Assembly (NCBI GenBank): GCA_012031195.1
Contig: JAAUUG010000001.1
Span: 1-37,083, forward strand
DNA: 37,083 nucleotides
Direction of reading: 5' to 3'
Source of the DNA: Oscillatoriales cyanobacterium SM2_1_8
GTDB lineage: Bacteria; Cyanobacteriota; Cyanobacteriia; Pseudanabaenales; Pseudanabaenaceae
Numbering within the stretch: position 1 is the stretch's first letter; every line of letters starts with the position of its first letter. The translations under genes were made by a program, and so were the position numbers. Shown in pieces: positions 1,133 to 37,083 of this stretch. The notes under the pieces were generated by a model. It worked only from the letters and a program-made list of their open reading frames with translations. It was not told the DNA's origin and did no database searches.

Positions 1133-1352
1133 GAACAATCGCAGGCTCTCCCGGAAACGTAGTGGAACACGAGCTTTCTGTGTCCTGAGATCCTTGCTCC
1201 GTCAGGGGTTTACATTTAGGTCGCCTAGTGAAGTCATTATAAAGCTAGGAGAGTCGAGCCCAGCAACAGCAGAATAGACACGGGTACTTCCCACCCGCTT
1301 CCCAGCATGATTGACTTTTCTAGCCCATGGGTGTTAAAGCTTTCCAAGAAGT

Positions 1353-1678: not shown

Positions 1679-2911
1679 TTACTTCACAATTTTGGTGACC
1701 ACACCCGAACCAACCGTACGTCCGCCTTCCCGGATCGCAAAACGCATCTCCTGCTCGATCGCAATGGGCGCAATCAATTCCACCGTCATTTTCACGCGAT
1801 CGCCCGGCATCACCATTTCCGCCGAAGTGCCGTCATCCGCCGTAAACGCCTTGATCGTGCCCGTCACGTCCGTCGTCCGCACATAGAACTGAGGACGATA
1901 GCCCGCGAAGAACGGCGTTTTCCGACCGCCTTCCTTGTCCGTGAGGATGTACACCTGAGCTTCAAACTCGGTGTGCGGATTGATGGTCTTGGGTTGGGCC
2001 AACACCATGCCCCGTTCCACCTGCTCCTTGGTCACACCACGCATCAACACACCCACGTTGTCACCGGCCAAGCCTTCTTCCAAGGTCTTTTGGAACATTT
2101 CCAAACCGGTCACCGTGGTATTGCGGGTGTCGCGAATTCCCACCAACTCCACGTTGTCGCCGATTTTCACCTTGCCCCGCTCAATCCGACCCGTAGCCAC
2201 GGTGCCCCGACCGGTAATCGAAAACACGTCTTCCACCGCCATCAAGAACGGCTTGTCTACAGCCCGCTCTGGCGTCGGAATGTAATCGTCCACGGCATCC
2301 ATGAGCTTCCAGATTTTGTCTACCCACGGATTTTCGCCCCGCTGGGTTTTCGGGTTGGCCACCATTGCATCCAAAGCCTGCTTGGCCGATCCCAAAACAA
2401 TCGGGAGGTTGTCGCCATCGAAGTCATAGGAAGCAAGCAGCTCACGCACTTCCAGTTCCACCAACTCGATCAACTCTTCTTCCCCTTCCATCAAGTCTTC
2501 CTTGTTCATGAAGACCACCAGTTGGGGTACCCCGACCTGACGGGCCAACAGAATGTGTTCCCGAGTTTGCGGTTCCGGCCCATCCGCCGCCGACACCAAC
2601 AAAATCGCCCCATCCATTTGTGCCGCACCCGTGATCATGTTTTTCACGTAGTCGGCGTGACCAGGACAATCCACGTGGGCATAGTGGCGATCCTTCGTCT
2701 GATACTCCACGTGAGCCGTGTTGATCGTAATGCCGCGCGCCTTTTCCTCAGGAGCCGCATCGATTTCGTCATACTTGCGACCAGCCGCTTGGCCAGCAGC
2801 TGCGAGGGTCATGGTAATGGCTGCCGTCAACGTCGTCTTGCCATGGTCTACGTGACCAATTGTGCCAATGTTGACGTGAGGCTTGTTGCGTTCAAACTTA
2901 GCGCGTGCCAT
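1679..2911 (-). CDS. tuf: Elongation factor Tu
   Basis: 410 aa. Begins [28 protein letters not shown] and carries the G-domain motifs DCPGH and NKED. ATG at 2909-2911. Confidence 0.98.
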
Positions 2912-3050
2912 GGATCTTCCCGTGTCTCCTTTTCAGATTCAGATAGTTGATAGATTTACCTCAGAGAGGGAAAAATTTGCCAAAGGCTTTGCAAAAGACA
3001 AAGCCCATATCAAATTTTCAATCCCCCTCAAAGCATCGCCAAAGAATTTC

Positions 3051-5171: not shown

Positions 5172-5501
5172 GATTGCTTCCTCTTGACGGAATGTAAACT
5201 TTACCTTAAGACATTATGCCATGCCGTGCCCTGTTCAAGATCTGGCCCTCAAGCATGGCGTTTGAAGCTTCTCAGGAGCTTTCTGGGCTTGGCAGCACTT
5301 TGATGCAATACCTTGCACAACACCCGAGCTACACTTCACACATTTTCCAAGTACATTTTTCCAGTACTTTTGCCTGAATCAAAATGCTTGGAGCGGTACT
5401 TCTGGCTCTAAAAACCAGCTCAAGGATTTGCAAAGGATTGATGCTTACAATACACATCGCAGTTGGCAAGCACAATTGGCAACCACAGAGATCCCCAGAC
5501 G

Positions 5502-5972
5502 CTAGTACCGGTAATGGGCAAAAGCCTTGTTGGCTTCCGCCATTTTGTGGGTTTCTTCGCGCTTCCGGATCGCTCCCCCGGTCTCGTTGGAGGCATCCAA
5601 CAATTCGTTGGCCAGCTTGCTGGACATGCCCCGCCCCGATCTCTGGCGTGAGTATTGCACCAACCACCGCAGGGCCAAGGCAGTGCCCCGATCGCTGCGC
5701 ACTTCCATGGGAACTTGGTAGGTAGCCCCCCCGACCCGCCGCGCTTTCACTTCGACCAAAGGCGTAATGTTGCGAATGGCGCGATCAAACACTTCCAAAG
5801 GCGGGTTGCCCGTCTTCGTCTCGATCAGGGTTAGGGCGTTGTAAACAATGCGCGATGCCAAAGAATACTTGCCGCACTTCATCATCCGCAGAATCAGCAT
5901 GTTGACGAGGCGGCTGTTGTATTGGGCATCGGGGGGGGTGGGCCGCTTGGCGGCACGGACTCTTCTCGACAT
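5502..5972 (-). CDS. rpsG: 30S ribosomal protein S7
   Basis: 156 aa. Ends with the S7 signature ([20 protein letters not shown]). It holds the expected position in the str operon. Confidence 0.97.
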
Positions 5973-6013
5973 GGTGGTTGGTTGCTTATTTCCCTAGAAT
6001 TTCCCGCAATCCC

Positions 6014-6433
6014 TTATTTCTTCTTGCCGCCGCCTTTGCCAGCCGCTGCGGCCGGTTGTCCAGGCTTCGGCCGCTTGGCGCCATACTTGGAACGCCCTTG
6101 CTTCCGATCCTTGACGCCGGAGGCATCCAACGTACCGCGGATGATGTGGTACCGCACCCCCGGCAAGTCTTTGACCCGACCACCCCGAATCATGACGACC
6201 GAGTGTTCCTGCAGGTTGTGACCAATCCCAGGGATGTAGGCGGTAACCTCAAAACCCGAGGTGAGACGTACCCGTGCCACTTTCCGGAGGGCCGAGTTCG
6301 GCTTTTTGGGCGTGGTGGTGTACACCCGTGTGCAGACACCCCGGCGTTGCGGACAGGCTTTAAGAGCGGGAGATTTGGTCTTTCGCTGGAGCTTTTGGCG
6401 CTCGCTGCGAATCAACTGCTGGATTGTCGGCAT
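6014..6433 (-). CDS. rpsL: 30S ribosomal protein S12, with a Gly/Lys-rich C-terminal tail
   Basis: The internal ATG at 6431-6433 gives [14 protein letters not shown]...[16 protein letters not shown], the canonical S12 sequence. The track ORF extends upstream to 6604, which is spurious. The tail reads [18 protein letters not shown]. Confidence 0.95.
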
Positions 6434-6497
6434 AGAAATTGGGCTGCGACTGCTTCTGACTTGGCTAAGACAACGGTCAACAACCATAACATGCCGC

Positions 6498-8144
6498 CTA
6501 CACCCTGTCAAGATTGGGTTGGTGGGCGGTGGTCTGGAGCTGCTGCCATTCCGACCGGCCGAGGTGTTGCAGGTACCGCCGGTGCTTTTGGTACACCAGT
6601 CCACTGCCCAGGCTGGCGAGGGTGGCCACCCCCAACCACTGACCGAGGTTCGGTTGGCTGGTTCCGAAGAGGGCGGCGCCGGGAAAGGCGGTGAACAACC
6701 AGAGGAAGGGGATTCGATCGGGGACGATGCCGGCGATCGCCAGGCTGAGGGGCGGCAGAATAACCAGGCTGGCCAGGGTCCCCCCGGCCCACAGCACCCG
6801 TTTGTTGGTTTTGAGGAGCAGGCAACGTTGCCCCAAGATCGCCAAGAGCACGCTCCACAGTCCTAGCAGCAGGGTGGCCATCAAGACGCGCAGCCGCTCC
6901 GGGGTGGTCACGTGGTTGGCGCACAGGAGGGCGATCGCCGTGAGGCCAACCAATCCCGCCTGCGCCAGGGCGATCGCCGGGGGGGCGGGGCTATTTTCGG
7001 CCAGGAAGAGGTCTTGCCAGGGGTATTGCCGGCGGTGGTGACGATGGCGGGCCCAATCCAAAAGGGTTTGGCGATGGGGCGACAGGACGGCGATCGCCGC
7101 GAGGTTGGCCATCAGGATGAGGATGTGCCAAATTTGCAGGGCTTCGGCACCCCAGAGACCGTGTTCCTCCCACACAAAGCCCAGTCCCAGGGTGTACCAG
7201 TACCCCAACAGCAGGTAGGCTTGGGATTTGCGGAAGACGGGGGCTTGGGGATCGGCAAAGCGGCGCTTCAGGCCTGTCCAGGCCCAGCCGGCCAGCCACA
7301 GCAGGTTGGCCAGGGTAAAGGCGTAGGAGATAAACCGCGTGCCGTTGAGGCGGTGACCAAACCAATACACCGGAAAGTTGGTGGCTTGGGTGAAGTAATG
7401 GGCATCGGGCCCCTCCCAGGCGATCGCCAGGTTGCTCAACAAAAAAGTCAGGCTAAATCCCAGGCCGAGACCTCCGGCCAAAACCAAGGTTAAACCGCTA
7501 AAAATGTCGCTGCGCTGTTGTTGGTTGCCGGCGATCGCCGCGAGCAATAGGGTGAGGGGAAACAACAAAACCGTGCCGGCGGCCAAGAGCAGGTAATACC
7601 CGACCACAAACTGGGGATCGGCGGACACTTGGTGAGCCACCCATAGGTGCAAGGGCACAGCACTGGCAAACATCAAACCGCAGAGGCTGGGCACCCCCCA
7701 CAATTTGCCGGTGAGGACGGCGGCGGCCGGTTGGGGGGAAAGCCGCAAAAAGGTGGCGGTGCCTCGGGATTCCTCCCGCTGCATGTCGGCGGCCAAAAAC
7801 AGGACGCTGGGTACCCATCCCCCCAGGGGCAACAACCAGTTCAAACTCCGGAAAACATCCAGGTACCAGCGCTCCCAATCCACCATGAGCCGGTTGTTGC
7901 CGTCCAACAGGCAGGCTTTGTAGGCGCTGGGGGCGCTGGTGAGGCAATAGGTGTGGTAGCGCTCCCCCACGGCCACGGTTTGGGTATCCGGAAGTTGGCT
8001 CCACCACGCCAGCATAAACAGCCCTTGGGCCAGAACGGCCAAAGCCAGGGCGATCGCCACGGTGCGGGGTTGCCACCGTCCTTTCCATTCCCGCATCAAC
8101 TGGGGATTGCGATCGCCAACCCAATCCACAAAATTAGCCAACAT
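6498..8144 (-). CDS. ABC-2-permease-like polytopic membrane protein, paralog 2
   Basis: Start is [23 protein letters not shown], with ATG at 8142-8144. The motif [13 protein letters not shown]...LTGKLWG matches the ABC-2 signature E..GTLE.L..P.....GK. Many transmembrane segments. Shares the N-terminal and RQTLLDW motifs with the upstream gene. Confidence 0.7.
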
Positions 8145-9789
8145 GGTGTTTCTCCGAGGAGGTGGACAAAGCCGGTGCGGTTTCCCGTGCCGCCAAACGC
8201 TGCCATTCCGAAGCCCCTTGCCGCTGCCAAACCCGGAGGCTGAGGCCCAGAATGCCTCCACACACCAAGCTTTGACCCAAAATCCCGGCGATCGCTCCGG
8301 GCCCGAGGGCCGGAACCACCTCGTCGAGCAGCAACACCCAGGTTTGACCCAGGGCCAGCCACAGGGGCCAAACCACGGTTCGCAGGGGCCAGGTGCCCAA
8401 CACCACCAAGCTGGGCAGGGACAGGATCAAAAGACCGATGATGGACATTTGCGCTTCTTGCCGGGGGCGGCGGGCCCACAGCCGGAGGGTTTGCATCAGG
8501 GCGTTCCAGGCGATCGCCGACAGGGTGAGGGACAGACCCATCACCAGAACCTTGCCGAGGGCTTGGGGTTCCTGAAGAAGGGCCCACCCCAACCACAGAC
8601 CAACGTACAAAGCGGCGTTCAGGGCCAGGCAACCCACCCAAGGGCTGCGCTCCCCCAGCACCAAATCCCGCCAGAGGGGCCGGCGATCGCCGCTGAGGTG
8701 CCGGTACCGCAACCAATCCAGGAGGGTTTGGCGTTTTTGCAGACAGCCCGTGGCAGCCAGAAAGAGCCCGGCTCCCCCCAGGTAAAACGGCACGTGATAC
8801 AAGAACGCTTCATGGATTTTGCCGGATGTGGGGAAAAAGCCCAGTACCAACAGGGTGAGGGCCACGGTCAGGAAGTAACTGCCCCCTTTGGTGGGTACCG
8901 GCGCCAAGGGGTTGGCGATGCGGGCGGTGGCGGCCTGGTGCAAACCGCGACCGAATCCCCCCAGCCATCCCCATACCCAAAGATGGGCAAGCCATGGATT
9001 TTGGGTCAAAGACCAGCCGAACCAAGTCAAGTTGCTCTCCCAAGCGGGGGTCAACACGCCGAACCGACTCCAGAGAATTGCGAGACCGCCAAAGGAGATG
9101 AGGGGAACCCCAAGCGTCCAGGCCAGGGCTGCCGCCCCGATCGCCGCACCGGTACTGGTCTGGGGGTGCAATTTTTCTTGGTTTTCCAGGTTGAGGCTGA
9201 GCAAGGCCGCTGCGGTGTTCATAACGCCAATGGCCAAGCCCCAGGTAAGACCGTAGCTGAGCAGGAAAGCGATGGGAATTCCCCCCTGCAGGGCCGCCCA
9301 GAGGTACAAGGGCAAAGTTGTGAGTCCCCCCAGCCAGATCGGGGAAGGTACCCCCCACAATTTGCCTTGGAGGAGCGCCCGGGGCCGCTGGGGCGACAAC
9401 CGCAGAACGTTGAGGGTACCCCGCTGCACCTCCTGGGTAAAGTTGCCGGCCACAAAAGCCACGCTGGGCACGGCGATCGCGTAGGGCCAAATCCAGCTCA
9501 GGGCGACGGCGAGGTGTCGCCACCACAGAGACCAACGAATTTGAATGGGCACTTGGCACAACAGTCGCTCCGGGGACTCGGGTACGCAATAGGCGTTGAA
9601 AACCTTTGTCCCTTCTGGATCGGGCAGCATCAGGACAAAGCCCACCAGCAAAATCCCTTGGAGGAGGGCCGCCCCCCCCACCACCAACCACAGGTTGCGG
9701 GTTGTCAGCCGCCCCTTCAGTTCCCGAAATGCCTGCGGGTTCCAATCCCCCAGCCGGTTTAGCCCCTCCGCCCAAATTTCGCCGATCAT
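8134..9789 (-). CDS. ABC-2-permease-like polytopic membrane protein, paralog 1
   Basis: 551 aa. Contains GDWNPQAFRELKGR, QRGTLNVLRLSPQ...LQGKLWG and RQTLLDWLRYRH. Its last 11 nt overlap the start of paralog 2. Confidence 0.7.
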   Translation of the reverse strand: MIGEIWAEGLNRLGDWNPQAFRELKGRLTTRNLWLVVGGAALLQGILLVGFVLMLPDPEGTKVFNAYCVPESPERLLCQVPIQIRWSLWWRHLAVALSWIWPYAIAVPSVAFVAGNFTQEVQRGTLNVLRLSPQRPRALLQGKLWGVPSPIWLGGLTTLPLYLWAALQGGIPIAFLLSYGLTWGLAIGVMNTAAALLSLNLENQEKLHPQTSTGAAIGAAALAWTLGVPLISFGGLAILWSRFGVLTPAWESNLTWFGWSLTQNPWLAHLWVWGWLGGFGRGLHQAATARIANPLAPVPTKGGSYFLTVALTLLVLGFFPTSGKIHEAFLYHVPFYLGGAGLFLAATGCLQKRQTLLDWLRYRHLSGDRRPLWRDLVLGERSPWVGCLALNAALYVGLWLGWALLQEPQALGKVLVMGLSLTLSAIAWNALMQTLRLWARRPRQEAQMSIIGLLILSLPSLVVLGTWPLRTVVWPLWLALGQTWVLLLDEVVPALGPGAIAGILGQSLVCGGILGLSLRVWQRQGASEWQRLAARETAPALSTSSEKHHVG

Positions 9790-11197: not shown

Positions 11198-11662
11198 ATG
11201 TCCCCTGTCCGGTTCGATTGGTTAATGCCAAGAGCGATGCCAAAATTGATGCTAACGGTGGTGCTGACAGTGGTGCTGACGGTGGTGCTGACAGCAATCC
11301 CAACAGCAACCATTTGGACTTGGGCGGCGATCGCGGCCCCTGGTTCGGGGAGCCTGCAGGAAAATGGGAAGGAAAGCCTGAACGGCAACCGCACGGGACT
11401 GGCTTGGCAAGGGGCCGACCCGGCGTCCCGCCTCACCTATTGTGCGGCCGCTCTGGCTGCCTTTCGCGGATCCCCCAGCCAAAGTTACATCATTAGCCAC
11501 GACGTGCAAAGTTTGGACGCCTCCGGTCTGTGCGATCGCATCGATCAGTTCTACAGCCTTGAGGAAAATCAAGATCAACGCCTCAGCACCGCGGCCGCCC
11601 TGGCCCCCCTACTATTTGCCGATACCCCCAAAGACCGCCGCTTTTACCCGTCCCTGCGGTGA
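11198..11662 (+). CDS. Hypothetical exported or membrane-anchored protein
   Basis: ORF with a hydrophobic N-terminus (MPKLMLTVVLTVVLTVVLTAIPTA) followed by a soluble region. The start is ambiguous, with ATGs at 11198, 11225, 11237 and 11249. Confidence 0.5.
   Translation: MSPVRFDWLMPRAMPKLMLTVVLTVVLTVVLTAIPTATIWTWAAIAAPGSGSLQENGKESLNGNRTGLAWQGADPASRLTYCAAALAAFRGSPSQSYIISHDVQSLDASGLCDRIDQFYSLEENQDQRLSTAAALAPLLFADTPKDRRFYPSLR
11251..11295 (+). repeat. 12-bp tandem repeat, about 3.75 units (GCTGACNGTGGT)
   Basis: Read directly from the sequence. It encodes the (LTVV)x3 part of the hydrophobic N-terminus of the 11198-11662 ORF. Confidence 0.9.
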
Positions 11663-12071: not shown

Positions 12072-12198
12072 TTATAGCTGTTTTGCATAGCGACGAGACA
12101 AAACAACTCCGGTCGCAGGGGCGAAGCCCCCATATTGGTTCTATTAGACGTTCGTTGGGCAAGAAAAAACCGTGTCGGTTTTAATTAAAATGACTATA
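12072..12198 (-). mobile_element. MITE/PATE-like repeat, copy B (127 bp, reverse orientation)
   Basis: Its reverse complement aligns end to end with copy A, with few mismatches. Confidence 0.7.
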
Positions 12199-17750: not shown

Positions 17751-17807
17751 AAATGGATGGTGAATCCCAACTGGTCTTGGGCAACAACATCCTCGGCATT
17801 ATCAACT

Positions 17808-18736
17808 TCATTCCTTAATCAGCAACAAGTAATCCCTGGTTTCCTGACCGGCAAAGCATTGCTGCTCTACCAAGCCATCATGGGCAATGCTAAACAGTCG
17901 GTAATTCTTACGCAAAAAACTCAATTCGTTGAGGCCTTCTTCCGTAATTGGCAATACTTCCAAAACGATATCAGGCTTTTTCTCTAAAATTACCGACTCC
18001 ATTCCCTGCAGAATCAACTTCTCAAAACCCTCTGCATCCACTTTAAATAAAATGTTCTTGGCATCCCCTAGCAGAGAGGAAAATATGTTGGCATCTATAA
18101 ACAATGCATCACTAACACAAATCTCGTCTGAGAAATTTGAAGCAAACTCAGAGAGAAGAGAACCGTAAACTTCAAGAAACCTGTGTTTTGGGCGATACCA
18201 AAATTAAAAATTTGGATGTTTTTTAGTTGATTTGCACGAACGTTCTGCTGCAGTCTAAAGAAAGCTTCACAAGAAGGCTCGAAGGCATAAACTCGACAAT
18301 CAAGATTGTTTTTCTGAATATACCTGCCGAAAAAGACGGTGAAGATTCCTACGTTTGCACCAATTTCAACAATTAAGTCATATTTGGACAATCTGGAAGC
18401 TAGGACGTTGAATACTTCAGTTTCATAGCGTATATTTTGAGAGAACATCACTTCGAAGTCAAATTCACCGGGATGAGGCACAATCCAAAGATCAACTCTA
18501 TCCGCCGAAGTGCCAGCCCAAACCTGCTGTGGTTCAAAAGAAACTCCTTGCCAATCGATATTCCGGAATGAGTTAACAATCTGATTCTTAAACTTGTTTT
18601 CAGGTAGAGAACGAGCGACCTTGCTCCATAAATAAATATATTTTTGCGCCACGTATGGCGATTTGGCAATGACTGAATGCAGTCTATGTGCGATTTTCGC
18701 CAAAAAACTTCTGTTGTCAATATCAGTTGGCTTCAT
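17808..18736 (-). pseudogene. FkbM-family methyltransferase on a low-GC island, with an apparent 1-nt frameshift
   Basis: Contains IVEIGANVGIFTVFF...VYAFEPSCEAFFRLQQNVRANQLKNIQIFNFGIAQNTGFLKF, then the frame changes at the A3 run 18167-18169 to YGSLLSEF...ILFKVDAEGFEKLILQG. I judge the GC content at about 40%, against about 60% or more in the flanks. Confidence 0.8.
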
Positions 18737-18801
18737 AAAGGGAAAAATCAGTTATTTTTTTAGAAAACAGGGATCGCTACTATTCACACAGGGGGTCAGT
18801 A

Positions 18802-18837
18802 ATGAATCCATCGCCATCCGCACAGAGATGGATTCAT
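18802..18837 (-). terminator. Perfect 11-bp inverted repeat between the 18850 gene stop and the FkbM gene
   Basis: ATGAATCCATC, then 14 nt, then GATGGATTCAT. A T-rich tract follows about 35 nt further on the minus strand. Its function is inferred. Confidence 0.35.
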
Positions 18838-18849
18838 CTCTATTAACTG

Positions 18850-19421
18850 CTATTCTCCGATCGCTCGGGCGGCTTGTTGGGTAGCGGTTTGGGCCGATTC
18901 CCACAACAATTGCAGCACCTTGCCCCGCTCGTTTACCGGGATGTAGGTCACCACTTCCCGCAGGGTCGCTCGCACCCGCGTTTGAATCCAGGGTTTGGCG
19001 AACCGATCCAAATTGACAAGGTTGGCGTTGCGGGGCACCGGGTACCGCTGCATCAGGGTTGCCGCAATCGGCAGTTTCTCATCGCAAAACCAGTCGTTGA
19101 CGTTGCCGATGCACAATTCCCAAAATTCCAAGGCGGTTTCGTATTCGCGGAGGGCTCCCTGCAGGCTTCTACCCCGACGGTGTTGCCGGAGTGGGCGGCC
19201 GTATCTACGGCTTGGCGGGCACGAAGCAGGGCTTGACGGTAATCGTTCAACACCAACCGTTCGGTGGTGAGGTGGGTGGGCACCAACCGCATTTGGCGCA
19301 GGGCGTGGACGTTGCTGGCGGCGGTGGGGGCTACGGTTTCCTGGGGGGCGGCGGCACGGGCCAGCCCCGGAGTCAACAACCATAGACCGGCAATCACAGG
19401 AATCCAAGAACGGCAAAACAC
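18850..19421 (-). pseudogene. Hypothetical secreted protein, with an apparent 1-nt frameshift
   Basis: GTG at 19419-19421 sits 8 nt after GGAGG and gives a signal-peptide-like sequence (FCRSWIPVIAGLWLLTPGLARAAAP). The frame changes near 19164-19166, joining ...GNTVGVEA to LQGALREYETALEFWEL.... No family recognised. Confidence 0.5.
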
Positions 19422-19620
19422 GGCGATTTCCTCCGAAGGGTTTTCAAAGAAAGAAGGTTTTCCAAAACTTTCCAAAACAATGTGGAGCTATGAAAACACC
19501 AATTCGGCAGGCTTGAGCCACCTTTTCGCCTGCGCTTGTGGGGTTAGTTTAGCAAGAGCCGGGGCGATCGCGCTAGCCGGAAACCGCTACACTAAGGAGC
19601 CGTACCCCGCAACCGTGCCG

Positions 19621-21306
19621 ATGGCTACCCGAATTTTTCTGTGCGACGAGCGCGAAGAGCCGGAAATCCGTCAATTTATCCGGGAAGCTGCCGCCAGTTT
19701 TGCCAAGGGGGAGGAATACATCGTTACTTGGAGCTGTGCCAACGTCACCTCGATTCAGGTGGGCGATCGCGCTTTGGTGAAGCGCATTGGTCGGCAGCCC
19801 CACGGTTTTTTTGCGGCGGGGTATGTGGTAGCGGCCGAGAAACGTTACCAATTGCGGCTGCGCGATCGCCGTTACCAAAACCTGAGCGAAGCCTACGACA
19901 ACGAATTTTTCCGGGGCAATTTTACGATCTGGCTGGCTTGGGAAGCCTGCACCGACTACGACACGCCGTTGCGTACCGCCCGACTCGAAGAAATGCCGGA
20001 GTTTCGGGGGGCTTTGTTCAACCCGACGGTGGGGGGCGGCGCTTTCCGGGCGGAGTTTGTCGATTTGTTGGAGGAAGAGTGGGAAGATCACTGCGAAGCG
20101 GCCGTCAAGCAAAAACGGGCGTTTCGGCTGGTGGATTTTTTCATTGCCCACGGTCAAAAAGCCAACCAGCAGGGCAAGCCGGCGGAAGCGGTGGAGTGGT
20201 ACGGCCAGGCGATTGACATTGACCCCAACTGTGCCAAAGCATTTGTCGGTTCCGCCAACGCCCTCCAAGCCCTTGGGGAACACCCCCGGGCGATCGCCGA
20301 TTACACCGAAGCCCTCGACATTGGTTCGGCCTACGACAAGGTGGCTTTTTATCGCCGGGGGGTCTCCCATGCCGCCCTCAAGGATTGGGCCGCCGCCGCC
20401 CGCGATTTTGGCCGGGCCGCCGCCCTCGATCCCCGCAACCCCGAAGCCCTCACCCAACAAGCGATCGCCCTCTACAAAACCCGGGACTTTGCCAAGGCGA
20501 TCGCCGCTTTGACCGAGGTGGTGAACCGCGATCCCGAAAACACCGAAGCGTTGTTGTACCTGGGGCGATCGCACTACAACCGCAAAGAATACGAGGCGGC
20601 CTTGGCCCGCATGGAAGCGTTGTTGGATGTGGCACCCGACAGCGCCGAAGGGTTTTACTATCGGGGCGTGATTTTGACCAAGCTGATCCCACCCCGCGAG
20701 CAAGAAGCCCTTTTAGACCTCAAAAAAGCGGCTCGATTGTTCAAGAACCAAAATCAATTGGATCGCTACGTCAAAGCCCGCAATTTGATGGACGTGTTGG
20801 CCACCGAAGAAGGGGAAGACGAAGTGCTGCGGTTGCCCCAAGCCGAAACGCCGGTGCTGACGCCGCCCGCTCCGGCCCCCATGGTCGAGGAATCCCCCAA
20901 AGAAGAAGGGAGAGAAGAAGCGGCCGAGGAAGAGCGCCGGCCCGATCGTCTACGGGAAGCTGAAAAACGGGCCCTGGAATTGGTTTTGGAGCAATACAAC
21001 CAAGAAGGATGGGAAATTGCGCCGGCTCCCTCCCGCAAAGCCGGGTACAAGTTTCGAGCCCTCAGGGGTGAGGTCGAAGAGGATGTAGAAGTCAAAGGTC
21101 TGGTGAGCAGCGATCTCACCTTTGCCATGAGCTCCCGCGAAGTCCGCCAAGCCGAAGCCAATCCCAATTTTGTGCTCTGGGCGATCGCCAATGCCCTCAG
21201 CGAACCGGAACCCCAATGCTGGCGCGGTCGGGAAATCCTCGAAAAATTTGCCCTCGACCCGATGAAGTATTTGGCCCGCTACCAAGGGGAATTGCCCCAG
21301 ACGTGA
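19621..21306 (+). CDS. Multidomain protein: PUA/EVE-like N-domain, TPR repeats, acidic/Pro linker and a DUF3883-type C-domain
   Basis: ATG at 19621, 561 aa. N-terminus has W..ANVTSIQVGDRALVKRIGRQPHGFFAAGYVVA. The middle holds about 5-6 TPR units (AVEWYGQAIDIDPN...). The C-terminus reads EKRALELVLEQYNQEGWEI...GYKFRALRGEVEEDVEVKG...FAMSSREVRQAEANPNFVLWAI, which matches my recollection of the DUF3883 pattern. Confidence 0.75.
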   Translation: MATRIFLCDEREEPEIRQFIREAAASFAKGEEYIVTWSCANVTSIQVGDRALVKRIGRQPHGFFAAGYVVAAEKRYQLRLRDRRYQNLSEAYDNEFFRGNFTIWLAWEACTDYDTPLRTARLEEMPEFRGALFNPTVGGGAFRAEFVDLLEEEWEDHCEAAVKQKRAFRLVDFFIAHGQKANQQGKPAEAVEWYGQAIDIDPNCAKAFVGSANALQALGEHPRAIADYTEALDIGSAYDKVAFYRRGVSHAALKDWAAAARDFGRAAALDPRNPEALTQQAIALYKTRDFAKAIAALTEVVNRDPENTEALLYLGRSHYNRKEYEAALARMEALLDVAPDSAEGFYYRGVILTKLIPPREQEALLDLKKAARLFKNQNQLDRYVKARNLMDVLATEEGEDEVLRLPQAETPVLTPPAPAPMVEESPKEEGREEAAEEERRPDRLREAEKRALELVLEQYNQEGWEIAPAPSRKAGYKFRALRGEVEEDVEVKGLVSSDLTFAMSSREVRQAEANPNFVLWAIANALSEPEPQCWRGREILEKFALDPMKYLARYQGELPQT

Positions 21307-21388
21307 GTTGAAGGGCAGAAAACCCGCTCCTCATTAAATTACCGCCAAATTATCGTCCAACAAATTCACGTTGGATCTGGGGGAGCCT

Positions 21389-22672
21389 TTAGGGGGAAAT
21401 CCCGGCCAACGGCAGGTATACCGTGAACGTGGTGCCTTGATGCCACACCGATTGGCATTGAATTTCGCCGCGATGGGTCTCGTAGATAATTTGCCGGCAA
21501 ATGGCCATCCCCAACCCGGTGCCTTTGCCCACGGGTTTGGTGGTAAACAACGGCTCAAACAACCGCTGTTGGGTTTCAGGGGTCATGCCCAGGCCATTGT
21601 CGGAAATGGCGATCGCCGCCCGATCGCCTTCACGGTAAACATGCACCGTTAGTTGGGGACGGCGATCGCCCATCAACCCCTTGGTGTAGGCTTCTTCCAT
21701 GGCATCGATCGCATTGCCCAGGATGTTCATCAACGCTTGGTTGATTTGACTTGGATAACAGGGCACTTTTTCGATGAGGTGGTATTGACGCACCACGTTG
21801 ACGCCGGGCCATCTCCCCGCGGCTTTTAAGCGATAGGACAAGATCAACAACACCCCTTCCACACTTTCTTCGAGGAGAACGGCGGTGGGGGCCGCCGCAT
21901 CGGTGCGGGCAAAGTTGCGCAACGTGCCGGAAATCGAAACCAGCAAGTTGGCTCCCAATTCCATGCCGTCCAAAATTTTGCGAAAGTCGGTTAGAGCAAA
22001 GTCCAAATCGTTGGCGATCGCCCCCTCATCTCCGAGTTGGCTTTGGTAATACCGGAAATAGGCCGCCATCTCATCCAGGTATTCCTTCGCCGGCGGCAAA
22101 TTGTTTTGAATAAAGTTGATGGGGTTTTTGATTTCGTGCGCAACCCCTGCCATAAGGTTGCCCAAAGAAGCCATTTTCTCGTATTGCAACAATTGGGTGC
22201 GTGCCTGCTGCAAGCGCTCTTCTTGTTCTTGCAATTCTCGAATGGAGGCCAAGGTACGGTTTAGGGTGATTTCCAAATCCTGAAAATCAATCGGCTTGGT
22301 CAAAAAGTCGAAGGCTCCCCGGTTCATAGCGGTGCGGATGTTGCCTAGGTCGCCGTAAGCCGAGATGACAATGGCCCGTAGGCTGCGATCGCGCTCTTGC
22401 AATTTCGCCAAGAGGGTCAGGCCATCCATCTCCGGCATGTTGATGTCGGTCATGACCAAGCGGATGCGGGGCCCCACTTCGTCCAACACCCGGAGGGCTT
22501 CGATGCCGCTATGGGCGAACAAAAATTCGTAGGACGACTCCCGCAGTTGCCGGCGAAACCGCTGCCGAAACAACCGCTCTACTTCCAACTCGTCGTCTAC
22601 AATCAAAACCCCCAGGCGGTTGGTCGCAAGGTTGGGAGTCTCAGCAAAGGAAGAAGCGCTGCGGCCGGTCAT
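21389..22672 (-). CDS. Hybrid response regulator / histidine kinase (REC-HisKA-HATPase)
   Basis: REC motifs VLIVDDE and MTDINMPEMDG. H-box MAGVAHEIKNPINF. G-boxes DNGLGM and GKGTGLGMAI. Confidence 0.9.
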   Translation of the reverse strand: MTGRSASSFAETPNLATNRLGVLIVDDELEVERLFRQRFRRQLRESSYEFLFAHSGIEALRVLDEVGPRIRLVMTDINMPEMDGLTLLAKLQERDRSLRAIVISAYGDLGNIRTAMNRGAFDFLTKPIDFQDLEITLNRTLASIRELQEQEERLQQARTQLLQYEKMASLGNLMAGVAHEIKNPINFIQNNLPPAKEYLDEMAAYFRYYQSQLGDEGAIANDLDFALTDFRKILDGMELGANLLVSISGTLRNFARTDAAAPTAVLLEESVEGVLLILSYRLKAAGRWPGVNVVRQYHLIEKVPCYPSQINQALMNILGNAIDAMEEAYTKGLMGDRRPQLTVHVYREGDRAAIAISDNGLGMTPETQQRLFEPLFTTKPVGKGTGLGMAICRQIIYETHRGEIQCQSVWHQGTTFTVYLPLAGISP

Positions 22673-24051: not shown

Positions 24052-24128
24052 CCATCGACATCTCCTAGTAAAGCATTTTGTGGAAACTACGGCCGGCGAT
24101 CGCCCAGTCCCGAAACTCGGCGGGCATT

Positions 24129-24254
24129 TATAGTCATTTTAATTAAATCGACACAGTTTTTCCCTGCCCAACGAAAGTCTAATAGAACCAATACGGGGGC
24201 TTCGCCCCTGCGACCCGAGTTGTTTTGTCTCGTCGCTATGCAAAACAGCTATAA
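24129..24254 (+). mobile_element. MITE/PATE-like repeat, copy C (126 bp)
   Basis: Aligns end to end with copy A. Confidence 0.7.
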
Positions 24255-25092: not shown

Positions 25093-25179
25093 TTAATACT
25101 TGGCGATACGAACCGTTACACGGTTTGACGGGCCCGCCGGTTTCTGCGTAGGCTAAGGCAGGTTGGGCGGAGGTTGGGC

Positions 25180-26916
25180 ATGGGGGGCTGGGGGTGGTTG
25201 GGTTTGGTGGCGATGGTGGGAACGCCGGCGGCGATCGCCCAAGGGTTGCATTTGACCTATCCGCCACGGCAACACCGCACCGATGCGGCGCGCATTTTCT
25301 TCATTGGCACGTCGCCCGCACCGGTGCAGTTGAACGGCCAACCGATTCGCCAAAGTGCCGCCGGCCATTTCGCGCCGAGCCGACCGTTGCAGCCGGGGAT
25401 CAATCGGTTTGTGTTGCGATCGGGGTCGCAGGAAGTTGCGGTGACGGTGGAGCGCACGGTGGAGCGGCTGCCCCAGACCCTTTCCGATCTACGTCGGCCG
25501 TTTCCGGAGCAGGCGGTGGCGGTGCAGCCGGGGGAGTTGGTGTGCTTTGGGGTGCGGGCGATGCCGGGAGCCCAAGTGCAGGTCGAAATTCCGGGAATTG
25601 GGATCTTGCCGTTGATGGCGGTGGGCGATCGCCCCGAGTTGCCCAGCAATGCGGCGGTGTTGGTGGGGCAAAATCAACCGCAGCCGAGCCGCACGGGAGA
25701 ATACGGCGCCTGCCGAGGGTTTGCCCAACCCCAACGGCTCACGGGTTTGGTCTACAGGACGGTTCGGGGTGCCGCGACGGCCCAGGTGGTGGCCCCCGGT
25801 TCCCTAGAAATTCTCGATCCCGAAACGATTGAGGTGGCGACGGTGACGGTACCGGAGGCGATCGCCCGGACAGGCCCCAGCACCGATGCTTCCCGGTTGA
25901 CGCCGTTGCCCCAGGGTACCCAGGGTCGGGTGACGGGTCGCCAAGGGGATTGGTGGCGGTGGGAGTACGGGGGCTGGGTGGAAGCCAAAAATGTCCGGAT
26001 CGGGCGATCGCCGCGGCCCCCTCGCTCGGTGGTGCGGGGGGTGACGACGCAGACGGCGGGCCTCTGGACGGAGGTGCGCATTCCCCTGACGGTACCGCTG
26101 CCCGTGACGGTGCAGGAACGACCGGGGGCGGTGGAATTGACGGTGCACCACGCGACGGCGGAAACCGACACGATGAAAATCGCCCCCAGTCCCATCCTGC
26201 GGTTGGTGCAGTGGGAACAAAGGACTCCCGATCGCCTCACCTACCGATTGGAATGGAAGGGCGATCGCCTCTGGGGCTACAAAGTGCGCTACGAAGGGAC
26301 AACGTTGGTGTTTTCACTACGCCATCCGCCCCAAGGCCCGATCACCATTCTGCTCGACCCCGGCCACGGCGGCCCGGAAGACCTGGGGGCCCGGGGCCCC
26401 ACCGGCTACCCGGAAAAGGATGTGGCGCTGACCCTAGCCCAGCAAGTGCGGGACATTCTGCAACGGGAGGGGGCGATCGTGGTGATGACGCGGACGGGGG
26501 ATGACGATTTGTGGCCCCAGCAACGGGCGCTCCGCATTGCCGAAGTGGAACCGACGGTGGCCCTCAGCCTCCATTACAATGCCCTCCCCGATGCCGGCGA
26601 TGCGGAAAATACCCAAGGAATCGGCATGTTTTGGTACCACCGGCAAAGCCATGGCCTGGCTCAGGTGCTGCACGATCGCCTGACGCGGGAACTCAACCGC
26701 CCCAGCTACGGCGTGTTTTGGGGGAATTTGGCCCTGGCCCGCCCGACGGTGGCCCCCTCGGTGTTGCTGGAATTGGGGTTTATGATTCACCCCGAAGAGT
26801 TTGAATGGATTGTCTCCCCGGTCGCCCAACACCAACTGGCCCGGGCGATCGCCCGCATCACCCTGGACTGGATTCGCCAAACTCCTGACAGGCAGCAAAG
26901 AAGAAGTAAAATATAG
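25180..26916 (+). CDS. N-acetylmuramoyl-L-alanine amidase (Amidase_3, AmiC-like) with a long N-terminal region
   Basis: Signal-like N-terminus (MGGWGWLGLVAMVGTPAAIAQG). The C-terminal domain reads ILLDPGHGGPEDLGARGP...KDVALTLA...ALSLHYNA...LLELGFM. Confidence 0.85.
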   Translation: MGGWGWLGLVAMVGTPAAIAQGLHLTYPPRQHRTDAARIFFIGTSPAPVQLNGQPIRQSAAGHFAPSRPLQPGINRFVLRSGSQEVAVTVERTVERLPQTLSDLRRPFPEQAVAVQPGELVCFGVRAMPGAQVQVEIPGIGILPLMAVGDRPELPSNAAVLVGQNQPQPSRTGEYGACRGFAQPQRLTGLVYRTVRGAATAQVVAPGSLEILDPETIEVATVTVPEAIARTGPSTDASRLTPLPQGTQGRVTGRQGDWWRWEYGGWVEAKNVRIGRSPRPPRSVVRGVTTQTAGLWTEVRIPLTVPLPVTVQERPGAVELTVHHATAETDTMKIAPSPILRLVQWEQRTPDRLTYRLEWKGDRLWGYKVRYEGTTLVFSLRHPPQGPITILLDPGHGGPEDLGARGPTGYPEKDVALTLAQQVRDILQREGAIVVMTRTGDDDLWPQQRALRIAEVEPTVALSLHYNALPDAGDAENTQGIGMFWYHRQSHGLAQVLHDRLTRELNRPSYGVFWGNLALARPTVAPSVLLELGFMIHPEEFEWIVSPVAQHQLARAIARITLDWIRQTPDRQQRRSKI

Positions 26917-27178
26917 CGTAGTGCTTCTTACAGCCTTTTTCGGGATCAAGTACCACAGTAGCACGGCTCGGGAAAAAGTAAACCGCTGTAGGTTGTCGCA
27001 AGCCCTCTTTTGTCCCCTTCGCCATGTGCTACATTTTTGCTCAAGCAGCTGTATCTGTACTGGCTAACGAATCTTTCTTCCGTCTTTATCTGCAACAGAT
27101 ACCACACTTGACCCAAAAATATGAAAATAGCTATACTTCTATGGTTCGCTTAAGAAATCAATACGAAAACAAGGAATT

Positions 27179-28189
27179 ATGAACTCCAAGAACAAAGATT
27201 ACATATCTAAAAATTTGTATTACATAGAAAAAATTGCCGCTCCTGAAATTCAGTGCTCAATCACGCCTAAACACAGTCAGTTTTACCAACTTGCACACAA
27301 GCATTCTATGGAATGGTCTTTGCAGATGCAGCTGATAACTTCTCGAGGATCTAAGAGCTATACCAAACTAGAGAAAGCTGAATTCGCTTGGTTGGCTGCT
27401 GCAACTTACCCTGAAGCATCCTTGGGTCAACTGGAAATTGCTGCAGATTACATGATTTGGTTTTTCATGTATGACGATGAATATGTTTCGAGTAAGAAGC
27501 CTGATTGTCAAAAAATACTAGAGCAGGTTCAGGAAAGACTGAATGCTGTGATGTATGGTGGAGATTGTATGGAAAGGGATGTTCCAGTGGTGAAAGCCCT
27601 AAGCAATATTTGTTACCGCATTTACCAAGAAAACGGAAGTCAGGGATTCTGGCTAGATCGATTTCGTTTTCACATGGAAAGATATTTCGAAGCCAACCTA
27701 TGGAATCTAAAAGTTTGTTTAGATCAAAGAATCCCTTGTCTAGATGAGTACAAGTCATACAGGATTTACGATATAGGCTTATTGCCAACCCTTGATCTAT
27801 CTTCTCACTTTAATCAAATAGACTACAAAAACGAGTTCTTCAGAACCGAATTATTCGAGCAGGTATCAAGGCTGACGGCCACTCATGTGTATGTGTTAAA
27901 TGATATTTTAGGAATCAAAAAAGAAATTCTGGATGAGGAGCCCATCAATATCGTGTTTGTTCTGCAAAATGCATCGGAAGTAGACCTCCTTCAGGCATAC
28001 GATCAAGCTATTTTGCTTTGCAATCAGGAATTCCAAACCTATGAGGATGCTTGCGACTCCGCTCGTAAGCTTAGGGCTCAAGTAGAACCTGAGATCGAGC
28101 AATACATTAATGTGTGCAACGCTTGGATTCGGGGACACTTTGATTGGTATTTTGTCTCAAAAAGATACAAGTCTCCTGGGACGGTTTAA
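27179..28189 (+). CDS. Class I terpene synthase (single-domain bacterial cyclase type) on a low-GC island
   Basis: 336 aa. Asp-rich motif FFMYDDEYV. NSE/DTE-type motif LNDILGIKKE, with Gly where Ser/Thr is usual. C-terminal RY pair (SKRYKS). Size and spacing fit bacterial sesquiterpene or diterpene cyclases. Confidence 0.8.
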   Translation: MNSKNKDYISKNLYYIEKIAAPEIQCSITPKHSQFYQLAHKHSMEWSLQMQLITSRGSKSYTKLEKAEFAWLAAATYPEASLGQLEIAADYMIWFFMYDDEYVSSKKPDCQKILEQVQERLNAVMYGGDCMERDVPVVKALSNICYRIYQENGSQGFWLDRFRFHMERYFEANLWNLKVCLDQRIPCLDEYKSYRIYDIGLLPTLDLSSHFNQIDYKNEFFRTELFEQVSRLTATHVYVLNDILGIKKEILDEEPINIVFVLQNASEVDLLQAYDQAILLCNQEFQTYEDACDSARKLRAQVEPEIEQYINVCNAWIRGHFDWYFVSKRYKSPGTV

Positions 28190-28343
28190 TCTAGCTTGAT
28201 CTGAGCCAATCTAAGGCTCTCCTGGCTTTATGGCAAAGCACTAGGCGTCTCAAGGGTCAAATCCTGATAGGGCAAGGACACCTCAGGACACAGAAGACCC
28301 CTTACTTCACCGCGTTCCTTGGAGAGCCCAATCTAAACTGAAG

Positions 28344-29197
28344 CTAGGGCAACTTGGGATAGCGATCGAAATCGGGTTTGCGCTTTTCCAAAAACGCCTG
28401 TTTTCCTTCCCGGGCTTCTTCGGTCATGTAGTACAACATCGTGGCGTTGCCGGCCAGTTCTTGGATACCGGTTTGCCCGTCGCACTCGGCATTGAACGCC
28501 GACTTGATGCAACGCAGCGCTAGGGGGCTTTTCTCCAGAATTTCGCGGGCCCAGCGCACCCCTTCCGCTTCCAATTGCTCCACCGGCACCACGGCGTTGA
28601 TCAACCCCATGGCCAAGGCTTCTTGGGCATCGTATTGCCGACAGAGGTACCAAATTTCCCGGGCCTTGCGCTGCCCCACCAACCGCGCCAAATACGAAGC
28701 CCCAAATCCCCCATCAAAACTGCCGACGTTGGGGCCCGTCTGCCCAAACACGGCGTTGTCCGCGGCCAGGGTCAAATCGCAGACGACTTGCAACACGTTG
28801 CCGCCGCCAATGGCATACCCCGCCACCAACGCAATCACTGGCTTGGGAATGGTGCGAATCAGCCGCTGCAAATCCAAAACGTTGAGCAGGGGCACGCCAT
28901 CTTCCGAAATGTAACCGGCTGCCCCCGCACCCGCTGGTCGCCCCCCGAACAAAACGCATACTTGCCGTCGCTGCAGGGGCCCGTCCCCGTCAACAACACC
29001 ACCCCCACATCCATGTCTTCTCGGGCATCGCTGAAGGCCCGGAGCATCTCGGCAATGGTCTCCGGCCGAAACGCATTGCGAACGTGGGGACGGTTGATGG
29101 TAATTTTGGCAATCCCTTCCGTCTTGTGGTACAAGATGTCCTCAAACTTTTGAACTTCTTTCCAAGAAATCTTTTTGGCGGTAGACATCTGTACCAT
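28344..29197 (-). pseudogene. menB: 1,4-dihydroxy-2-naphthoyl-CoA synthase, with an apparent 1-nt frameshift
   Basis: N-terminus reads ...[14 protein letters not shown]...[12 protein letters not shown]. After the C5 run at 28922-28926 the protein continues in another frame ([23 protein letters not shown]...[19 protein letters not shown]). Confidence 0.9.
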
Positions 29198-29245
29198 GGA
29201 ATGCGGATAGCTTACCCATCATAATACGGAACGAAAACTCTGACC

Positions 29246-30402
29246 ATGCGATTGGCCACACGCCTGCAGGGATTGCAAGCCAATGTGTTTGCGGACATGG
29301 ATCGCGCGAAGCAGGAGGCGATCGCGGCGGGGTTGCCCCTGTGGGATTTGTCCTTGGGTTCTTCGGATTTGCCGGTGGCTCCCCACATTGTGGCGGCGAT
29401 CCAAGACAGTTTGCAGGACTCCCATTCCTTTGGCTACACATTGTTTGGGGCCACAGCGGATTTGCGGCGGGCGATCGCCCAGTGGTTGGTGGTCAAATTC
29501 GGGGTCGAGGTCGATCCCGAAACGGAAGTGTTGCCGTTGATCGGTTCCCAGGAGGGGACGGGCCACCTGCCCTTGGCGGTGTTGAATCCGGGAGATATGG
29601 CCCTGTTGCAGAATCCGGGGTATCCCTCCCACTATGGCGGGGTGGCCTTGGCCGGGGGCGTGCCCTACGGCATGGAATTGCGCCCCGAAACCGGTTTTTT
29701 GCCGCAGTTTGACCGGATTCCGGGGGACGTGTTGGCGCGGACGCGGTTGATGGTGTTGAGTTATCCCCACAACCCCACCACGGCGATCGCCCCCAGGGAA
29801 TTTTGGGAGGAGGCGTTGGCCTTTGCCCGGCGGCACGATCTGGTGTTGGCCCACGATTTTCCCTATGTGGATTTTGCTTTGGATGGGAGTTTGCCGCCGT
29901 CGGTGTTGCAGGTAGATCGGGGGCGGGAGCGCAGCTTGGAATTTTTCAGCCTGTCGAAGTCGTACCACATGGGGGGACTGCGGGTGGGGTTTGCCGTGGG
30001 GAACCGGGAACTGATTGGGGCGTTGCGGCGGATCAAAGCGGTGGTGGATTTCAACCAATACCGGGGCATTTTGCGGGGGGCAATCGCGGCGTTGACGGGC
30101 CCCCAAGACGGTTTGGGGCACACCCAGCAAATTTTGCGGGAGCGGCGGGATGCGGCCGTGCAAGCCTTCCGGGCGATTGGCTGGACGGTGCCGGTGCCGG
30201 CGGCCACGATGTATTTGTGGGCACCCTTGCCGGGGGGGGGAAATTCCCTGCGGTTTTGTCAAGAATTGGTAAAAAACACGGGGGTGGCTCTGGCGCCGGG
30301 GAGCGGGTTTGGGTCGGCGGGGGAGGGTACGTGCGTTTGGCCTTGGTGCAGCCTCCGGCGGTTTTGCAGGCGGCGATCGCGGCGATCGGCAAATTTCAGT
30401 GA
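29246..30402 (+). pseudogene. Class I/II PLP-dependent aminotransferase, with an apparent 1-nt frameshift near the 3' end
   Basis: Contains SYPHNPTT and the PLP-lysine motif FFSLSKSYHMGGLRVGF. At about 30328 (GGT-AC, one T missing) the canonical ending GYVRLALVQPPAVLQAAIAAIGKFQ* lies in another frame, with TGA at 30400-30402. The track ORF reads on into the MITE instead. Confidence 0.85.
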
Positions 30403-30413
30403 TAAATTACGAA

Positions 30414-30537
30414 GTATAGCTGTTTTGCATAGCGACGAGACAAGACAAGTCGGGTTGCAGGGGCGAAGCCCCCGTATTGGTTCTATTAGACTTTCGTTGG
30501 GCAGGAAAACCGTATCATTTTAATTAAAATGACTATA
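30414..30537 (-). mobile_element. MITE/PATE-like repeat, copy D (124 bp, reverse orientation)
   Basis: Aligns with copy B. It contains the perfect 16-bp palindrome CATTTTAATTAAAATG. Confidence 0.7.
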
Positions 30538-30555
30538 ACTTTGGCGGCAAACCCA

Positions 30556-31863
<1,308 letters not shown>

Positions 31864-36894: not shown

Positions 36895-37024
36895 ATAGTA
36901 CTCCTTGGGTGGATGTGACCCTCTCCCCCCAGCGAGTCGGGCCAACCAGGGACAGGTGGGTTTGGAACGAATTCCGGTGGGTTTTGTTGGGCCTTTGCCC
37001 CATGCCAGATCATGGCAGGGGATT

Positions 37025-37083
37025 TATAGTCAATTTAATTAAAAATTGGACGCGACCACGATTGTTTTGATTGCCTTTACTCC
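37025..37083 (+). mobile_element. Divergent MITE/PATE-like copy E, truncated by the window edge
   Basis: Starts TATAGTCAATTTAATTAAAA, which matches the left end of copies A and C. The interior diverges. Confidence 0.45.

Follow-up and report, generated by a model that had tools for sequence, protein, structure and literature searches.

The window analysed in this work is a 37,083-bp stretch of DNA from Oscillatoriales cyanobacterium SM2_1_8 (contig JAAUUG010000001.1). Between its convergent amidase and menB genes lies a short insert with a single gene, which encodes a class I terpene synthase. The insert, the synthase gene with its catalytic sites and the host genes around them are placed as follows.

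26881-28343, no strand: lineage-specific insert of 1,463 bp between host amidase and menB, delimited by blastn homology breaks, junction alignments and guanine plus cytosine (GC) content.
27179-28189, plus strand: intact class I terpene synthase gene, 336 aa, identified by the open reading frame (ORF) list, Pfam, NCBIfam, phmmer, AlphaFold and Foldseek.
27473-27487, plus strand: Asp-rich motif D99-D100-E101-Y102-V103 (FFMYDDEYV), from the sequence and the homologue alignment.
27704-27718 and 27803-27808, plus strand: clade-signature sites, residues 176-180 and 209-210, from the alignment.
27761-27763, plus strand: R195, the pyrophosphate-sensor Arg, exactly 46 residues ahead of N241, from the alignment and the rule given in PMC5082573 and PMC8450962.
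27899-27925, plus strand: NSE triad N241-D242-I-L-G245-I-K-K248-E249 with Gly in the middle, from the sequence and the alignment.
28163-28168, plus strand: R329-Y330 pair, from the alignment.
25174-26916, plus strand: host N-acetylmuramoyl-L-alanine amidase (Pfam Amidase_3; 82-85% identical to P0153/P0154).
28344-29197, minus strand: host menB (naphthoate synthase) in two frames, from the ORF list, blastn and comparison with relatives.
30949-31863, plus strand: host polyprenyl synthase, geranylgeranyl diphosphate (GGPP) type, crtE-like (Pfam polyprenyl_synt; same place in the relative L021).

Relatives with an empty site were found by a protein search with the neighbouring amidase (82-85% identity). 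They are the contigs L021 (GCA_052746615.1, Pseudanabaenaceae cyanobacterium), L023 (GCA_053502095.1) and L024 (JGI 3300031989), which share 80-88% DNA identity with the window and are not sister strains. Their gene order is psaC, amidase, convergent menB, aminotransferase and crtE-type gene, the last being reached by the L021 contig only. Amidase and menB are spaced by 94 bp in L021, -4 bp in L023 and 15 bp in L024, and no terpene synthase was found within 10 kb on either side of the amidase-menB junction in these three. The blastn homology of the window to the relatives ends at 26878-26880 and restarts at 28344/28345. L023 has a single CTAG in which the stops of amidase (TAG) and menB (CTA) overlap; in its place the window has 11 insert-encoded codons and a stop. 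The amidase homology ends at about residue 569-572, and the last 12 codons of the gene (26881-26916; tail TPDRQQRRSKI and stop) are read from insert DNA. Because the relatives have empty sites, the junctions could be pinned to the base. The initial annotation, made from the letters of the sequence, had correctly seen the convergent amidase (Amidase_3) and menB genes on the two sides of the synthase gene; it had put the left edge of the segment at 26917, and the actual boundary is 26880/26881, within the final 12 codons of the amidase ORF.

The junction of L021 (11741-11834) carries a different, GC-rich spacer of 94 bp with the hairpin CCCTCTCCC-AAAAA-GGGAGAGGG, so the convergent amidase/menB junction tolerates small insertions in several lineages. 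A genome-contig scan with the amidase was also tried as a source of empty sites; its best relatives were 44-49% identical and without amidase-menB synteny, and it was rejected.

The insert also differs from the host in composition. Its GC content is 41.5% versus 59.5% in the backbone (z = -5.0 against 552 backbone windows of equal size). For 26917-28343, which had been judged AT-rich at roughly 40% GC, 41.6% was measured versus 58.7% in the rest of the window. GC content at third codon positions (GC3) is 0.41 in the synthase gene versus 0.72-0.76 in the neighbouring host genes, and the codon table is quite different. The segment had been called HIP1-free, and indeed none of the 76 HIP1 sites of the window lies within 26853-29317. 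But this absence alone is weak evidence for foreign DNA, because 3.0 sites are expected in the insert (P(0) = 0.05) and the native tuf/fusA region is HIP1-free as well. That region is a lower-GC stretch of 4.9 kb at 1803-6733, which covers the native EF-Tu gene and large upstream ORFs (probably EF-G).

By the ORF list the synthase gene is the only gene of the insert, so that integrase and transposase are absent; the window lacks tRNA genes, and the insert ends carry no terminal repeats beyond chance. Since integrase or transposase, tRNA target and flanking direct repeats are all missing, this is a plain single-gene insertion and not a classical genomic island. Phage records and IMG/VR contained no relatives of the synthase, and plasmid homologues reach at most 26% identity. 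The foreign composition, together with the absence of the insert from the same junction in the three relatives, demonstrates horizontal acquisition about as well as sequence alone allows. The initial annotation would have given up this idea for a vertically conserved locus with host-like composition; the locus is not vertically conserved, since in the three relatives the stops of amidase and menB abut and there is no synthase.

The 336-aa terpene cyclase ORF is present as it had been described, and a Pfam check had been proposed for it, with the lack of a profile hit as a reason to drop the assignment. The protein matches PF19086 (Terpene_syn_C_2; IPR034686) strongly, with 116.4 bits versus a cut-off of 23.7 (E = 1.9e-33), over model positions 1-196 of 199. 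Among solved structures, the best phmmer match is the 10-epi-cubebol synthase 7zrn (E = 3.4e-27, residues 11-333 aligned), and T-muurolol synthase 9hqd is matched with E = 1e-23, so that the alignment to solved bacterial sesquiterpene synthases is full-length. The AlphaFold model, for which 81 homologues were used as input, has a pLDDT of 95.1, a pTM of 0.93 and 16 helices. Every one of its top 50 Foldseek matches is a class I terpene synthase (TM 0.78-0.85), the best being T-muurolol synthase (TM 0.83/0.91). The predicted model thus has the class I all-alpha terpenoid synthase fold, and profile and model together show that the product of 27179-28189 belongs, with an intact sequence and the predicted fold, to the class I terpene synthase family. 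An identity as terpene synthase-like N-prenyltransferase (DabA/KabA type) was considered and rejected, as the PDB match had an E value of merely 0.0045. It had also been stated that known cyanobacterial terpene synthases differ in size or motifs; as to size this is not true in general, as class I synthases with a single domain and 310-350 aa are frequent in bacteria, cyanobacteria included.

The best NCBIfam match is isoafricanol synthase NF041624, which is aligned end to end, yet the window synthase is not a member at 115 bits versus the equivalog cut-off of 500. All ten matches to product-defined NCBIfam families (isoafricanol, delta-cadinene, epi-cubebol, pentalenene, geosmin/2-methylisoborneol types) stay far under their cut-offs.

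To describe the catalytic residues, counts were taken from an alignment of 141 single-domain homologues, which were found by searching representatives of about 15 billion proteins exhaustively with HMMER. The motifs FFMYDDEYV and NDILGIKKE and the C-terminal RY pair are exactly as initially reported. The D99 and D100 columns are Asp in 138/141 and 134/141 homologues. The Asp-rich motif continues as DDEYVS, so with V103 and S104 positions 5 and 6 are both non-acidic; at the fifth position, Asp is found in 102 homologues, Glu in 18 (together 120/141) and Val in 5. The canonical third acidic residue, DDxx(x)D/E, is therefore absent from the window synthase. This residue is usual but does not define the family, because active enzymes without it exist: sesterviolene synthase has DDFIV and epi-isozizaene synthase DDHRN (PMC10509563), and 4-epi-cubebol synthase has DDAFC (PMC5082573). 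The residues N241 to E249 agree with the NSE pattern N-D-(L/I/V)-x-(S/T, rarely G)-x-x-(K/R)-E. Its middle position is Ser in 109/141, Gly in 23/141 (16%) and Thr in 4/141, and the change from Ser to Gly is also known from active spiroalbatene synthase (PMC8450962). By analogy with these characterised active enzymes, DDEYV and NDILGIKKE are natural, documented variants. The initial description of the metal-binding motifs as atypical is right against the textbook consensus but was overstated. From the list of structural anchors of class I synthases (PMC8450962), the window protein keeps P78 and L85 (21 and 14 residues ahead of the Asp-rich motif), R161, N257 (8 past the NSE triad) and W323 (6 ahead of RY).

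The synthase has very few relatives. When 5.8 billion clusters were searched by a word index, the protein itself (P0001) and P0002, its closest relative with about 51-52% identity, were the only matches. The exhaustive HMMER search added P0003 (about 34-35% identity), and all others were at or below 30%; P0002 and P0003 are thus the only two relatives counted at a level of at least 35% among about 15 billion proteins. In a neighbour-joining tree built from the 70 best hits, P0001 was joined with P0002 and then with P0003, with 97/100 bootstraps for each node. No cyanobacterial sequence was found in this clade, and no other cyanobacterial protein exceeds 35% identity. The synthase had been called an orphan, which suits both an insert without tailoring genes and a protein with two relatives. 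P0002 has DDLYV and NDILGVEKE, so DDxYV and NDILGxxKE are kept. Synonymous differences between the window gene and the P0002 gene are saturated (proportion pS 0.83) while the nonsynonymous proportion pN is 0.33, which indicates, at the sequence level, purifying selection on this lineage. All three clade members have His210, at a position which is aliphatic in other homologues.

P0002 is carried by five Logan contigs (L001-L005) from the runs SRR13450944-64, in which metatranscriptomes of microcosms with Lake Erie Microcystis blooms were sequenced (PMC8398468). Being transcripts, these contigs show natural expression of the gene; it was found only in transcriptomes. The transcripts are 1.2-1.3 kb long, with A-rich untranslated regions of 11-18% GC, of low complexity and without Shine-Dalgarno sequence. 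These regions occur in two variants, surrounding coding sequences that are one base apart (the protein is identical). The coding region has 37.5% GC and zero NCG codons. By these features, the host of P0002 looks like an AT-rich eukaryote, or is possibly an AT-rich bacterium whose translation works without Shine-Dalgarno sequences. The contig of P0003 (L025) has 43% GC and is HIP1-free. There the gene is bracketed by a 51-nt direct repeat (9692-9742 and 11330-11380; 86% identical, 1,638 bp apart), which hints that P0003 may lie in a small insert too. This repeat is unrelated to the window flanks, and comparison of the flanks of the window gene, P0002 and P0003 gave no common non-coding sequence and no sign of a shared cassette.

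We compared the window synthase with known systems. (+)-T-muurolol synthase of Roseiflexus castenholzii (9hqd/9hqi) has the same single-domain class I alpha fold (root-mean-square deviation 2.1 A over 305 columns) and the same order of Asp-rich motif, sensor Arg, NSE triad and RY (PMC5082573), but identity is 22-24%, and the T-muurolol enzyme has the canonical DDQCD and NDVLSYPKE (PMC5082573). 10-epi-cubebol synthase of Sorangium cellulosum (7zrn), the top sequence match among solved structures, is about 22-23% identical in superposition; it has FFFDDVCEN (DDxxE), NDIYSLRKE and a conserved 'WE' Glu, which is absent from the window clade. Sesterviolene (DDFIV), 4-epi-cubebol (DDAFC) and spiroalbatene (Gly in NSE) synthases show that single deviations are compatible with activity. 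However, these three come from unrelated Actinomycetota lineages and have one deviation each, while the window clade combines both deviations with the loss of E176/N179/R180/E209. Cyanobacteria are among the phyla richest in single-domain synthase genes (PMC12009305). Their native enzymes (Nostoc germacrene A and selinene synthases; plasmid-borne Fischerella and Nostoc homologues) are of the same Pfam family and of similar size, but reach no more than about 22-26% identity and lie outside the window clade, and the window gene has foreign composition.

The insert contains a promoter-like site and members of two repeat families. These and the other copies are listed below; the second family consists of miniature inverted-repeat transposable elements (MITEs).

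27108-27137, plus strand: promoter-like TTGACC-18 nt-TATACT, 42 nt ahead of the start codon; 10/12 positions match, putative function.
28215-28328, no strand: MITE-like element of 114 nt with terminal inverted repeats GGCTCTCC/GGAGAGCC, from repeat alignment.
About 1144-1260, opposite strand: second copy of the 114-nt element, from repeat alignment.
28207-28214, no strand: left 8-bp direct repeat CAATCTAA, putative target-site duplication, inside GAGCCAATCTAA.
28329-28336, no strand: right 8-bp direct repeat CAATCTAA, putative target-site duplication.
27121-27139, minus strand: 19-mer, solo terminal inverted repeat of the 131-nt MITE family, local alignment score 16.
1349-1478 (minus), 12073-12198 (plus), 24128-24253 (minus) and 30411-30541 (plus): full copies of the 131-nt MITE family, from alignment.
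37024-37044, minus strand: partial copy of the 131-nt MITE, from alignment.

The initial annotation had seen that the fragment at 27121-27139 resembles the right end of a MITE. It aligns with this end as GAAGTATAGCTATTTT-CATA versus GAAGTATAGCTGTTTTGCATA, on the opposite strand and including a 1-nt gap, and its score was reached by 0/1000 dinucleotide shuffles of the insert. The 131-nt family has 43% GC, ends GAAGTATAGCTGTTTT.../...AAAATGACTATAACTT and copies that are 90-93% identical. Another MITE-end-like match, at 27804-27828 in the coding region, scored 14, equal to the shuffle maximum, and was judged to be chance. The short GAGCC(C)AATCTAA repeats noticed at the same time are real (GAGCCAATCTAA at 28203-28214 and GAGCCCAATCTAA at 28324-28336). 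Because the element ends abut CAATCTAA on both sides, the pair consists of the putative target-site duplication and part of the inverted repeat. The 114-nt element has two known copies only, which align from 28217-28328 to 1253-1144 on the opposite strand with 70% identity over 113 nt (E = 1.3e-11). There is no clear duplication around the second copy, and the relatives have neither copy at the corresponding sites. The diverged paralogue, at 70%, lies 27 kb away in the same genome. The host repeats inside the insert tie it to this genome, which argues against a chimeric assembly and for an acquisition that is not brand new.

Taken together, we consider it probable that a low-GC single gene was acquired and that it encodes an intact class I cyclase acting on a host prenyl diphosphate, which is the best explanation of the data. 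The insertion, its foreign composition, the family and fold of the enzyme and the intact catalytic residues are demonstrated; route of entry, expression, substrate and enzyme activity are inferred. A poorly sampled Pseudanabaenaceae-related cyanobacterium gained about 1.3-1.5 kb of low-GC foreign DNA with one gene. The insertion point is that of the old abutting stops of amidase and menB, with about 11-20 nt of the junction replaced. Illegitimate recombination is the most likely mechanism of entry, given that integrase, tRNA and long terminal repeats are all absent. Host MITEs would have colonised the insert after its arrival, giving the solo end at 27121-27139 and the 114-nt element at 28215-28328. 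Transcription may start from the internal promoter-like site (27108-27137) or come from the co-directional amidase gene by read-through, which is possible because no terminator lies between amidase and synthase gene.

In the enzyme, three Mg2+ would be held by D99/D100 and N241/G245/E249, where water presumably stands in for the Ser hydroxyl at G245, and the diphosphate would be gripped by R195 and R329-Y330. Loss of diphosphate from the host prenyl diphosphate would then start carbocation cyclisation in a hydrophobic pocket; this standard class I mechanism is suggested because the ligand set is intact. The substrate would be farnesyl diphosphate (FPP, the intermediate) or GGPP (the product) from the host CrtE-type synthase at 30949-31863. 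The initial annotation had reported no adjacent P450, methyltransferase or prenyl-diphosphate synthase. None is in the insert, but this crtE-type gene sits 2.76 kb downstream of the synthase gene, in host DNA and outside the insert; its position, and hence its closeness to the insert, is ancestral and coincidental. Because the best matches are sesquiterpene synthases, a sesquiterpene product seems somewhat better than an even chance by sequence.

Several points weigh against this explanation. Identity of the synthase to any characterised or solved enzyme is 22-27% at most, and in its end-to-end alignment with NF041624 (synthase residues 27-335 versus model positions 25-337 of 351) the equivalog score is missed by far. 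With every product-defined cut-off missed and identity to solved enzymes not above 27%, the initial view that the product cannot be guessed was borne out; substrate and product are in general not predictable from sequence (PMC12009305). The promoter-like sites in the region are not more numerous than the shuffle expectation, and a search for plus-strand terminators found none, also between amidase and synthase gene. In addition, E176 (Glu in 130/141), N179/R180 and E209 are absent from the window protein and from both clade relatives. Position 209 of the window synthase is Ser, and E209 is the usual salt-bridge partner of R161. These lost anchors, which the initial annotation had not noticed, are more unusual than the reported motifs, and with them missing the activity could be altered or even lost.

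An inactive passenger, which is either a pseudo-enzyme or an unexpressed gene that has not yet decayed, would account for these losses and for the lack of an acidic residue at position 5 or 6 of the Asp-rich motif, and there are documented cases of terpene synthase homologues whose motifs deviate and which are inactive (PMC10509563). It would also agree with the absence of tailoring genes and of a convincing promoter or terminator, and with a codon usage distant from that of the host. We consider it improbable: the full-length ORF is intact, all residues contacting Mg2+ or diphosphate are kept, the structure model is confident, and the same deviations are kept at 52% and 34% identity despite saturated synonymous sites. 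Moreover, transcripts of the closest relative occur in five environmental libraries.

If the enzyme is active, it may use GGPP and make a diterpene (C20), which differs from the best explanation in substrate and product only. Spiroalbatene synthase is a diterpene synthase, GGPP is the main CrtE product in cyanobacteria, and a GGPP-type synthase is encoded 2.8 kb away in the host. In contrast, characterised cyanobacterial single-domain synthases mostly use FPP, and sesquiterpene synthases make up the best sequence and structure matches as well as all the top NCBIfam models. The fourth-ranked match by sequence is a type I diterpene synthase of Streptomyces (9m25), which takes twelfth place by structure, and spiroalbatene synthase is the only active enzyme cited here for Gly in the NSE triad (PMC8450962). 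Among 334 tested bacterial class I synthases, 37% are diterpene synthases, one of them from a cyanobacterium (PMC12009305). Because of this share, and because sequence does not predict the substrate, we keep the diterpene as a substantial but clearly minor chance. As to the origin of the gene, an ancestral copy that was deleted in the three relatives would fit the fact that just these three could be examined, at 80-88% DNA identity and with no sister strains. This is very improbable in view of the GC3, the lack of HIP1 and the un-host-like codon usage; the relatives retain the native amidase C-terminus and CTAG stop overlap where the window has insert codons, and no other cyanobacterial protein passes 35% identity. 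Hardly any weight is left for an assembly chimera or a contaminant joined into the metagenomic contig, even if the window is apparently one entire contig of 37,083 bp and the homopolymer frameshift in menB suggests an imperfect sequence. The host sequence is colinear on both sides in one contig, the amidase frame runs smoothly into the insert, and the insert carries two host-type repeats, one of which is 70% identical to its paralogue and too diverged for a mis-join.

A further and unlikely possibility is that the clade is a new, tiny class I subfamily, possibly cross-domain, with its closest member perhaps from an AT-rich microbial eukaryote in Lake Erie blooms. Such a subfamily may have three members, marked by DDxY(V/A), the lost E176/N179/R180/E209 and the conserved His210. 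If this were true, it would mean a recent inter-domain transfer or a common unsampled donor for the cyanobacterial and eukaryotic copies, and the terpene skeleton made by the enzyme might be new and of relevance for bloom chemistry (odour, grazer signal).

Under the best explanation, acquisition of a single low-GC cyclase gene, the synthase is a divergent newcomer to a well-known enzyme family, delivered by a clean single-gene insertion. The locus is a clean, well-bounded case in which a cyanobacterium has obtained one biosynthetic gene from a distant low-GC donor. As gene transfer the case is clear but fairly ordinary, because the unusual-looking motifs are known natural variants, and the understanding of terpene synthases or of gene transfer is unchanged by it. 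It is of moderate interest as an enzyme-discovery target and because the sole close relative may be eukaryotic. The lineage has essentially no characterised, or even sequenced, relatives, so its expression would be a cheap sampling of unexplored sequence space, and the enzyme may reveal a new volatile from a bloom-related community. It also offers a natural test of scaffold loss, combining Gly in the NSE triad with no third acidic residue and no E176/R180/E209.

The window is colinear with L021 and L023 across 11.5-36.8 kb except for three inserts. The other features are given here.

26881-28343, 17752-21404 (3.65 kb) and 30409-30535 (MITE), no strand: the three inserts, from the colinearity comparison.
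18095-18736, minus strand: 213-aa ORF in the 3.65-kb insert, GC3 0.40, with only a weak methyltransferase-like match.
19264-21306, plus strand: 680-aa TPR and NOV_C protein in the 3.65-kb insert.

The insert at 17752-21404 is absent from L021 and L023 and contains an AT-rich part of about 43% GC. The ORF at 257-1132 on the plus strand encodes a ThuA-like protein that is conserved in cyanobacteria, where thousands of homologues share 55-63% identity with it; no Pfam match was found for it at E <= 0.001. A 373-aa minus-strand ORF overlapping it was judged spurious.

At gathering thresholds, Rfam gave nothing in the whole window, with no riboswitch or known small RNA and no match for the 114-nt element; at relaxed thresholds, the two non-coding flanks gave only chance-level matches to long non-coding RNAs. 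A pattern scan for the 114-nt element in metagenome contigs returned six matches, all of them chance and with no extended similarity. Exact look-ups of the proteins encoded in the window gave no records. Both copies of this element lie directly 3' of convergent genes, and on the strand continuing from menB the folding energy is -53.8 kcal/mol (z = -3.0).

The menB frame is split by one base missing in a G5/C5 run at 28922-28926, as seen against L021 and L024; either this stems from a sequencing error in the homopolymer, or the phylloquinone-pathway gene is truly a pseudogene. L021 lacks the 131-nt MITE copy at 30411, which in the window lengthens the aminotransferase ORF to 425 aa versus 385-392 aa in relatives.

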